Virus record (IMG/VR): IMGVR_UViG_2939521961_000004
Source: a virus
Taxonomy: Duplodnaviria > Heunggongvirae > Uroviricota > Caudoviricetes
Length of the DNA: 64,000 bases
Reading direction: 5' to 3' (one strand)
Part shown: positions 18,001-21,000 of the stretch, in pieces
How positions within the stretch are numbered: the first letter of the stretch is position 1
How the letters are laid out: every line of letters starts with the position of its first letter
Program-made: the position numbers

Positions 18001-21000
18001 AGCTGGCGAACGCGACAATTACTGATATGCAGATACGCCAGCGTGATGTCGCTGCACTTGATGCCAGATACTCGAGGGAATTAGCCGATGCGAGAGCTGA
18101 AAATGAAACTCTGCGTGCTGATGTTGCCGCTGGTCGTAAGCGCCTGCGGATCAACGCCACCTGCTCCGGTACCGTGCGTGAAGCCACCGGCACCTCCGGC
18201 GTGGATAATGCAACCGGCCCCCGACTGGCAGACACCGCTGAACGGGATTATTTCATCCTCAGAGAACGGCTGATGGCAATGCAGAAGCAACTGGAAGGAG
18301 CACAGGAATATATCCGTACCCAGTGTATACCGTGATGTTTTGTTATGAAGGTGTTACTGGTAACGTTAAGGTAATTTAACAAAGAGTCAGTTCCGGACTT
18401 TATAGTGTGCTCAGTTCATGGCCAAAAACGATTTCTGTGATAAATATTTTGAATATTATTTACAGGTAAATGGAGTGGGGCACATGGATAGAAATATTAC
18501 AATAGAGAATGAAGTATATGCCCGTATTGTATGGGCAGAGAAGGCAAAAACACGGTAATTCCGTGTGTTGCCATGATACCTGATTGGCAGAATAGTTGTT
18601 TGGTTTTGAGTATATAGTCAGCGTTTTTTGTTCAGTAATTGCTCCCTCAAAAAATAATAAAACAAGGTGATTATTTTTGTTTATTATTTAGTTTTTTTGT
18701 GTGTTGTTTTATTGTTTTTGCGTGGTTTGTTTTTTATTGTTATTTCATTAAGGGAAGGTAAATTCAGGATGGCAGTCTGTAGATAATCGGAGGTCACTTA
18801 TGCTACATGATCACGTGGCAGAATGTCTGGAGAAAAAAGGACTGTACCGGAGAGCAGCTGAACGATGGGCAAAAGTGATGGTACAGCTAAGTGATGACCA
18901 GAAAAGAAAAGTGGCGGCACAGAAACGAGCAGAGTGTTTGCGTAAGGCGCGCCGGACTCCGGTTTCACCGGTGAACCTGACCGAAATAAAACAAGCGGTC
19001 AACAGACTACATTCTGAGTTGGGAATGGGATTTGAAGAGCGGCGGGTATTCCGACGATATAAAGGGACAGGAGAACAGAATACGTCCGGAAACGCGCGGT
19101 CAAAAAAATGCTAAAAAATATCTGAGAGAGTTATTGCCTGTTACCATAAGAAAAAGCGACTTTAGTGGTCGCTTTTTGTGTCATATATAAGTCGTTTAAG
19201 TAAACCTGTCTGAACAGGTGCTCTGGTCGTGTTTGTCTTTGTTGGGTACAAATTGAGAATATTTTTCATTAATTAATCTTCTTCTGCAGGCTTCAATAAC
19301 CCACGCTGAAAAATTACCTGAACCTTTCAGGTCAAGAGCGATGTTAATTTGTTCAATTATCTGGTTTGGAAATCGGATGTTGCGGGTTGTTGTTCTGCGG
19401 GTTCTGTTCTTTGATGACATAATGTTGCCCCGTATTCAGTGTTGCTGATTTGTATTATCTGAAGTTGCTTTTACGCTAATTTGATGCAGATCAATTAATA
19501 CGATACCTGCGTAATAATTGATTATTTCTCGTGGTTTGATGGCGTACACACATGTCGTGATAAACCTCATGTAGATGATAATTATTATCATTTTCGTGGG
19601 TCCTTTCCGGCGATCCGACAGGTTACGGGGCGGCGACCTCGCGGGTTTTCGCTATTTATGAAAATTTTCCGGTTTAAGGCGTTTCCGTTCTTCTTCGCCG
19701 TAACCTAATGTTTTTATTTAAAACACCCCCTGAAAAGAAAGGAAACGACAGGTGCTGAAAACGGGCTTTTTGGCCTCTGTCGTTTCCTTTCTCTGTTTTT
19801 GTCCGTGGAATGAACAATGGAAGTCAACAAAAAGCAGCTGGCTGACATTTTCGGTGCGAGTATCCGTACCATTCAGAACTGGCAGGAACAGGGAATGCCC
19901 GTTCTGCGAGGCGGTGGCAAGGGTAATGAGGTGCTTTATGACTCTGCCGCCGTCATAAAATGGTATGCCGAAAGGGATGCTGAAATTGAGAACGAAAAGC
20001 TGCGCCGGGAAGTTGAAGAACTGCGGCAGGCCAGCGAGACAGATCTCCAGCCAGGGACTATTGAGTACGAACGCCATCGACTTACGCGTGCGCAGGCCGA
20101 CGCACAGGAGCTGAAAAATGCCAGAGACTCCGCTGAAGTGGTGGAAACCGCATTCTGTACTTTCGTGCTGTCGCGGATCGCAGGTGAAATTGCCAGTATT
20201 CTCGACGGGATCCCCCTGTCGGTGCAGCGGCGTTTTCCGGAACTGGAAAACCGACATGTTGATTTCCTGAAACGGGATATCATCAAAGCCATGAACAAAG
20301 CAGCCGCGCTGGATGAACTGATACCGGGGTTGCTGAGTGAATATATCGAACAGTCAGGTTAACAGGCTGCGGCATTTTGTCCGCGCCGGGCTTCGCTCAC
20401 TGTTCAGGCCGGAGCCACAGACCGCCGTTGAATGGGCGGATACCAATTACTATCTCCCGAAAGAATCCGCATACCAGGAAGGGCGCTGGGAAACACTGCC
20501 CTTTCAGCGGGCCATCATGAATGCGATGGGCAGCGACTACATCCGCGAGGTGAATGTGGTGAAGTCTGCCCGTGTTGGTTATTCCAAAATGCTGCTGGGT
20601 GTTTATGCCTACTTCATAGAGCATAAGCAGCGCAACACACTTATCTGGTTGCCGACGGATGGTGATGCCGAGAACTTTATGAAAACCCACGTTGAGCCGA
20701 CCATCCGCGATATTCCGTCGCTGCTGGCGCTGGCTCCGTGGTATGGCAAAAAGCACCGGGATAACACGCTCACTATGAAGCGTTTTTCCAATGGTCGTGG
20801 CTTCTGGTGCCTGGGCGGTAAAGCGGCAAAAAACTACCGTGAAAAGTCGGTGGATGTGGCGGGTTATGATGAACTTGCTGCCTTTGATGAGGATATTGAA
20901 CAGGAAGGCTCTCCGACGTTCCTGGGCGATAAGCGTATTGAAGGCTCGGTCTGGCCAAAGTCCATCCGTGGCTCCACGCCCAAAGTGAGAGGCACCTGCC

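Follow-up and report, generated by a model that had tools for sequence, protein, structure and literature searches.

Enterohaemorrhagic Escherichia coli (EHEC) O157:H7 Sakai has five pch genes in three groups, and only group 1 (pchA, pchB and pchC) is described as necessary for full ler and espA expression and full adherence (PMC6265319, citing Iyoda and Watanabe 2004). The group 1 genes differ mutually at three nucleotide positions only, and plasmid-borne PchA raises a chromosomal ler::lacZ fusion in K-12 from ~1,577 to ~9,087 Miller units, a ~6-fold activation (PMC5931665). Pch activates the LEE1 promoter in the LEE (locus of enterocyte effacement) only while this promoter is silenced by H-NS/StpA/Hha/YdgT; Pch expression lowers H-NS occupancy in vivo, and in vitro Pch excludes H-NS from LEE1 DNA (Fukui et al., PMC4764244). 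Probes for pchA, pchB and pchC were positive in 7/8 O26, 6/6 O111 and 6/6 O103 EHEC strains (PMC2323221), and genes of the pchABC family have been detected in LEE-positive strains only (PMC6724679). We analysed a 64,000-nucleotide stretch of viral DNA (Caudoviricetes; IMG/VR record IMGVR_UViG_2939521961_000004), called here the window, and found that its open reading frame (ORF) at 18800..19114 is almost certainly pchA, a known group 1 PerC homologue of EHEC and here a moron in a lambda-like prophage of the O26:H11 type.

18336..18799, plus strand: non-homologous (moron) region upstream of pchA, with its promoter or leader, nearly identical to the region upstream of Sakai pchA
18800..19114, plus strand: the ORF assigned as pchA, PerC-family transcriptional activator of LEE1/ler, 104 amino acids (coordinates include the stop codon)

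The 104-residue product of this ORF, which has a GGAGG Shine-Dalgarno sequence, matches the Pfam PerC family (PF06069) over profile positions 1-89 of 90 with an E-value of 3.8e-44 and 149.3 bits, against a gathering cut-off of 22.6 bits, and also matches phrog_994 (E 1.4e-45). An initial annotation of this DNA had seen PerC-like motifs in a 104-residue protein and was ready to give up the idea if no PerC-family match appeared; the profile search that it proposed bears the idea out. All residues (104/104) are identical to those of Sakai PchA (ECs_1091, annotated in the O157:H7 Sakai prophage Sp4 as 'transcriptional regulator PchA'), which places the protein in group 1. The RefSeq accession of the window protein, WP_001303878.1, is also that of the proteins in O26, O121 and O111 genomes, and the gene is annotated as 'PerC family transcriptional regulator' in O26:H11 strain 11368. 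The window holds one pch copy. The full protein identity and the near-identical Sp4 prophage indicate that the ORF is pchA, and this copy is an already known gene in an already sequenced and annotated lineage. The suggestion that it might be virulence-regulatory cargo is supported by its identity to an experimentally characterised protein, for which the ler reporter assay proposed at the same time has already been published (PMC5931665).

The PerC family is split by function: PchD and PchE give little or no ler::lacZ activation (PMC5931665), while PchE represses curli and biofilm (PMC6265319), and flagella as well. The ORF could thus be a paralogue with another role, of the PchD, PchE or K-12 YfdN type, rather than a LEE activator. 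This is very improbable, however, against complete identity to PchA and synteny with Sp4; moreover, the few nucleotide differences cited above (PMC5931665) set the group 1 members closely together, and both PchD and PchE fall into other groups by similarity and size. We therefore keep the assignment to pchA.

Judged by sequence, the window holds a lambdoid prophage of the O26:H11 type, which corresponds to Sakai Sp4 in intact form. In local BLAST, Sp4 is 99.1% identical to window 660..15780, and the holin-lysis-pchA segment of Sp4 is 99.7% identical to 15784..19277. From the end of Rz to beyond the hairpin downstream of pchA, only 4 differences are found in 866 columns, and the upstream leader, the T-rich tract and the downstream terminator are all nearly identical in the two prophages. 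Both share relBE, the repressor, replication, RusA, Q, CAAX protease, AraC-like regulator, ileZ-argN-argO tRNA, esterase and lysis genes. Many E. coli O26:H11 chromosomes, that of strain 11368 among them, match the 1,471 bases at 18350..19820 with 100% identity. The features expected for a lambdoid prophage of a LEE-positive strain are thus found: likeness to Sp4, type III secretion system effector genes and identity to O26:H11. The two prophages differ in arrangement. In Sakai Sp4, the holin-lysis-pchA block is inverted and bounded by the insertion sequence IS629 (17131..18680 of the Sp4 sequence compared), and an IS629 break at the equivalent of window 19277 truncates the ylcI-like gene downstream of pchA and separates the block from cos. 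The order in the window is undisrupted and, unlike that in Sakai, keeps Rz, pchA, ylcI, cos and nu1 intact, which is presumably the ancestral arrangement.

The pchA coding sequence is found at an identity of at least 99% in 673/5,426 complete E. coli genomes, in 1-5 copies with a median of 3. The carriers among the matches listed include O157:H7, O145, O121:H19 and O111:H8, and the larger locus query matches O26. The order Rz - pch - YlcI/YnfO is repeated in O121:H19 and O111:H8. In contrast to this frequency in chromosomes, a tblastn search with PchA of 50,697 deposited phage records gave one match only, a 1.57-kb EDL933-derived fragment, which makes pchA, as far as that collection goes, essentially a prophage feature. 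Among 5.8 billion proteins, a word-indexed search picked out 16 clusters only, from E. coli or E. albertii wherever an organism was named.

The pchA transcript of the window is predicted to carry the control elements described for pchA mRNA.

18789..18793, plus strand: GGAGG Shine-Dalgarno sequence of pchA, read from the sequence and sequestered in the predicted mRNA fold
18888..18899, plus strand: intragenic anti-Shine-Dalgarno sequence of pchA in the predicted fold, overlapping the DicF pairing site
19151..19177, either strand: bidirectional intrinsic terminator hairpin, A5-GCGAC-loop-GTCGC-T5, between pchA and the ylcI-like gene
48602..48653, minus strand: DicF small RNA (sRNA) gene beside dicB in the adjoining tandem prophage (Rfam RF00039, 75 bits)

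As relayed by PMC7769764 and PMC7873438, Melson and Kendall (2019) reported that an intragenic anti-Shine-Dalgarno sequence blocks pchA translation and that the sRNA DicF opens it under low oxygen. In the window, the Shine-Dalgarno sequence and start codon (18789..18800) pair with 18888..18899 in the minimum free energy folds from all four 5' ends tried, and the 131-nt segment 18780..18910 folds with -31.4 kcal/mol (z = -2.69). The 5' end of DicF is predicted to pair within 18885..18903, overlapping the anti-Shine-Dalgarno sequence, consistent with PMC7769764. The gene for this regulator and its target pchA lie ~30 kb apart in the same window. Downstream of pchA, the terminator hairpin is a 10-nt perfect inverted repeat that folds with -14.7 kcal/mol (z -3.4) on the plus strand and -12.1 kcal/mol (z -4.3) on the minus strand; in either direction the stem is followed by a U-run. 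The good folding on both strands and the flanking A5/T5 indicate a bidirectional intrinsic terminator.

The steps by which this gene might act would carry over from the literature on the identical protein, as far as LEE1 activation, H-NS displacement and DicF control are concerned. PchA would be a small all-helical DNA-binding protein with AT-rich target DNA, both at the LEE1 promoter and in further loci acquired horizontally; it would displace the H-NS/StpA/Hha silencing complex and so switch on ler, and Ler would in turn do the same for the type III secretion system and its effectors. In the window, pchA sits in the variable slot between Rz/Rz1 and cos with its own AT- and T-rich upstream region, closed off by the bidirectional terminator. 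Its translation would be held off by the anti-Shine-Dalgarno sequence paired to the ribosome-binding site until, at low oxygen, the prophage-encoded DicF, of which a copy lies in the neighbouring prophage of the window, lifted the block.

Several points weigh against the assignment of such a function to this copy. The function would be transferred to the O26 gene by its 100% identity to Sakai PchA, and the LEE itself lies outside the window, so that the O26:H11 identity would be the ground for assuming the target in this host. No convincing pchA promoter was located: a scan upstream of pchA for the sigma-70 consensus gave one weak site (18568..18596), and fewer sites than shuffled sequence. 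The DicF-pchA duplex energy is marginal, being reached by 10/300 shuffled DicF sequences (it beats 290/300); thus the pairing is an agreement with the literature and not an independent proof. The AlphaFold2 model of PchA, an all-alpha protein of five helices with a disordered tail at residues 87-104, is of moderate confidence (predicted local distance difference test score, pLDDT, 70) and has no Foldseek match in the PDB at E <=10, and a PDB sequence search with PchA also gave no match. The DNA-binding mode is therefore structurally undefined. These structure searches agree with PMC4764244, according to which Pch has no homology to known DNA-binding proteins.

We also found that residues 7-47 of PchA resemble the AraC negative regulator (ANR) family (NCBIfam NF033650) below the threshold (E 0.046, 13.6 bits, cut-off 32). 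ANR proteins are small and helical and are reported to interact with H-NS. By sequence likeness, this match may hint at the way in which PerC-family proteins counter H-NS, or may equally be due to chance.

The upstream region (18336..18799) has no homology to lambda in an alignment to the lambda right end, and contains two further elements.

18418..18558, plus strand: ORF of 46 amino acids between Rz and pchA, with a full-length match to phrog_2157 (E 2.7e-37)
18640..18760, plus strand: T-/AT-rich tract directly upstream of pchA, a probable H-NS-type silencing or curved-DNA region

The T-rich tract that had been pointed out ahead of the ORF does exist, and no other stretch of the window is as biased in base composition: it is 52% T and 24.8% GC, compared to the window mean of 50.7% GC, and nowhere else in the 64 kb does one base reach that share of a 121-nt stretch. 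The tract holds short A-tract/T-tract inverted repeats. Since H-NS prefers AT-rich horizontally acquired DNA (PMC4764244), its composition suggests that it is probably an H-NS-type silencing or curved-DNA region. Short hydrophobic ORFs in the tract (18639..18761 and 18667..18786) were rejected as composition artefacts, their sole family match being at chance level (E 0.26). An Rfam search of 16500..20500 at a permissive threshold found no known sRNA in the locus, all matches being at chance level. The 46-residue ORF has no Pfam or NCBIfam match and no annotation in RefSeq NC_013361. Its sole match in the phage collection is an EDL933-derived fragment, and thus it seems to travel with pch.

We investigated the position of pchA between the lysis cassette and the packaging end of the prophage.

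16999..17532: lysozyme gene of the lysis cassette
17811..18335: Rz, lysis cassette
18088..18273: Rz1, embedded in Rz
19196..19420, minus strand: YlcI/YnfO-family (DUF3950) gene of 74 amino acids, conserved lambdoid backbone beside the packaging end
19421..19816, plus strand: lambda-type cos region with the cosQ side, cosN, and cosB with R-site repeats, located by alignments to the lambda ends
19817..20362: nu1, downstream of cos
20337..22262: large terminase gene, downstream of nu1

The 12-nt cohesive-end sequence GGGCGGCGACCT is found at 19628..19639, and lambda 1..204 aligns with window 19628..19830 (cohesive end, cosB and nu1 start) at a mean column identity of 98%. The CGTTTCC R-site repeats are at 19680, 19735-19747 (inverted) and 19781. 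This is a lambda-type cos, with the cohesive end and the cosB R sites upstream of nu1, and the ORFs do lie between a lysis cassette and cos, as the initial annotation had placed them, with Rz/Rz1 on one side and the cohesive end on the other. Aligned to the lambda right end, the window is without similarity from 19115 to ~19240 and highly similar from ~19240 through cosQ to 19627, where the lambda genome ends. This puts the variable slot at 18336..~19240, or ~0.9 kb. It is occupied by bor, lambdap78 and lambdap79 in lambda and by pchA in the window, so that 'the bor position in lambda' is a fair name for it. The orientation of pchA with the late operon makes read-through plausible, and late-promoter transcription could plausibly extend into pchA upon prophage induction. 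In published data on the SOS response, group 1 pch genes show a delayed induction, with gene-specific significance for pchC only and a pchA log2 fold change of -0.33 (PMC5931665).

The second ORF of the locus encodes a 74-residue protein that matches DUF3950 (PF13132; E 1.3e-17, 63.8 bits, cut-off 25) and the NCBIfam family YlcI_YnfO_N (NF041551; 34.5 bits, cut-off 30). It had been described as divergent from the PerC-like ORF, but the two genes are convergent, tail to tail with the terminator hairpin between them. A tblastn search found homologues in 151 phage records, lambda and the Shiga toxin (Stx) phages Stx1 and Stx2 among them. In lambda (NC_001416), the homologue is an unannotated 64-codon ORF on the minus strand at 48109..48303, ~200 bp from the right end (3110..3304 of the lambda piece compared). 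In the first 50 codons, the window and lambda differ at 17, of which 12 are synonymous and 5 non-synonymous; this excess indicates a real gene under purifying selection. Across 25 homologues, residues 1-49 hardly vary and the C-terminal tails are unrelated, because the slot boundary, where lambda homology breaks, falls inside the gene. Partial matches to the 1,471-base query 18350..19820, a stretch that takes in cos and the nu1 start as well, occur in 4,636/5,426 genomes, compared to the 673 with pchA. This far wider distribution indicates that the gene belongs to the backbone and is not Pch-specific cargo. Of the two ORFs, pchA stands as virulence cargo, whereas its neighbour is a YlcI/YnfO backbone gene. 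In O121:H19 FWSEC0006 (2897..4201 of the locus sequence compared), the pch-YlcI/YnfO pair is followed by an HNH endonuclease and a small terminase gene, not by lambda cos/nu1. Thus the YlcI/YnfO gene is not tied to a lambda-type cos, and the pair or its junction recombines onto different packaging modules.

The idea that both ORFs are chance frames in a non-coding lysis-cos spacer can draw on the spurious short ORFs that do occur in the T-rich tract. The strong curated family matches of both, the experimental characterisation of the pchA product and the synonymous excess of the ylcI-like ORF against lambda leave it a negligible probability, and we treat both as genes.

The label 'ribbon-helix-helix-like', which the initial annotation gave to the 74-residue protein, found no significant support. 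In its sequence, a basic N-terminus is followed by the strand-like segment RNIRFP and by two helices. In the AlphaFold2 model (pLDDT 65), helices at 19-32 and 34-55 follow a basic unstructured N-terminus; the strand of a ribbon-helix-helix protein would form only in a dimer, and the model is a monomer. The best Foldseek match in the PDB is YiiF (2k5j) at a non-significant E-value of 4.1, and PDB searches with the single sequence (phmmer) and with a profile gave no match. With Arc and CopG sequences, hhalign placed residues 12-33 on Arc 9-30 (the β-strand and helix A) in the expected register but with a probability of only 1.7%, and gave nothing for CopG. A match to the HicB-like phrog_497 is marginal (E 0.0099). 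A ribbon-helix-helix fold is plausible, and the protein is probably a small DNA-binding protein.

The pair could form a functional module, in which the ylcI-like gene encodes a ribbon-helix-helix repressor of pchA or opposes it as an antisense excludon. The two genes lie side by side in O26, O121 and O111 prophages, also where the packaging module differs, the equivalent K-12 pair ybcW-ylcI of DLP12 is listed from RNA-seq as a convergent excludon (PMC12288877), and the basic N-terminus, strand-like segment, helices and Arc register of the protein would fit such a repressor. On the other hand, YlcI/YnfO genes are much commoner than pch and have homologues in lambda and Stx phages without pch; lambda homology resumes inside the ylcI-like ORF, which puts the gene with the backbone at this junction; between the two genes stands a strong bidirectional terminator; and membership in the ribbon-helix-helix class is statistically unsupported. 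A module is thus unlikely, and the YlcI/YnfO gene is a separate backbone gene and not a Pch-specific partner. There is similarly a slim chance that the YlcI/YnfO gene, or antisense transcription from it, modulates whatever cargo the Rz-cos slot holds (here pchA), with the 46-residue phrog_2157 ORF likewise as a possible accessory factor. Were this the case, it would tie LEE activation to the state of the prophage.

Other genes of the window also concern the LEE and its effectors. At the far end of the pchA prophage are a gene for a TccP2-like effector with EspF repeats (41333..42085, minus strand) and an EspV fragment (42410..42592, minus strand), both labelled by mapping the annotation of related sequence onto the window by local BLAST. 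Thus, type III secretion effector cargo sits alongside a LEE regulator. Upstream of the tRNA triplet of the pchA prophage is an AraC-like helix-turn-helix regulator gene (~12326..13039, plus strand) that corresponds to Sakai ECs_1087. Prophage AraC-like regulators of the Psr/PatE kind are reported to repress the LEE. By analogy, the pchA prophage may carry both positive and negative LEE regulators. The STnc100 sRNA is matched on the plus strand at 13394..13584 (138 bits) and 63413..63585 (105 bits), each time directly after the ileZ-argN-argO triplet of one of the two tandem prophages. In the second prophage, an IS3-family element (43537..44852, with an ALIL pseudoknot at 43872..43988) lies within an already frameshifted integrase region. 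Strain 11368 has no insertion at this site and instead has IS1203 at the equivalent of window 7152, indicating that the source of the window is another O26-type strain.

PchA is one of the virulence master switches of EHEC, and correct naming matters for annotating this prophage as virulence-regulatory. The gene has been characterised since 2004 and the copy is identical to the reference protein, so that nothing new is learnt on Pch itself. What is useful is that an O26-type prophage keeps the lysis-pchA-ylcI-cos order scrambled by IS629 in the Sakai reference, that the right boundary of the cargo slot falls inside an uncharacterised conserved YlcI/YnfO gene missing from the lambda reference annotation, and that a short ORF travelling with pch is missing from the RefSeq annotation.

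Compared to lambda, the window has its lysogenic-conversion cargo at the same site, flanked by Rz/Rz1 and cos within a late region that is otherwise conserved. However, bor, lambdap78 and lambdap79 (~1.7 kb) show no sequence similarity to the ~0.9-kb pchA insert, and bor, which encodes an outer-membrane lipoprotein, runs antisense to the late operon, whereas pchA is a regulator gene co-oriented with it. YlcI of DLP12 and YnfO of Qin in K-12 belong to the same family as the 74-residue protein and occupy the same position just upstream of the packaging genes, but its tail (residues ~50-74) is unrelated to those of other members. The prototype PerC, that of enteropathogenic E. coli (EPEC), is a shorter protein (89 versus 104 residues) of the same Pfam family, with 47% identity (pMAR7 PerC) over residues 2-88. 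Its gene is plasmid-borne, being the third of the perA-perB-perC operon on the EAF (EPEC adherence factor) plasmid pMAR7/pMAR2, while pchA is prophage-borne. Both PerC and Pch activate the LEE1 promoter, but EPEC needs PerC for LEE expression only in particular conditions, whereas EHEC needs Pch (PMC4764244).

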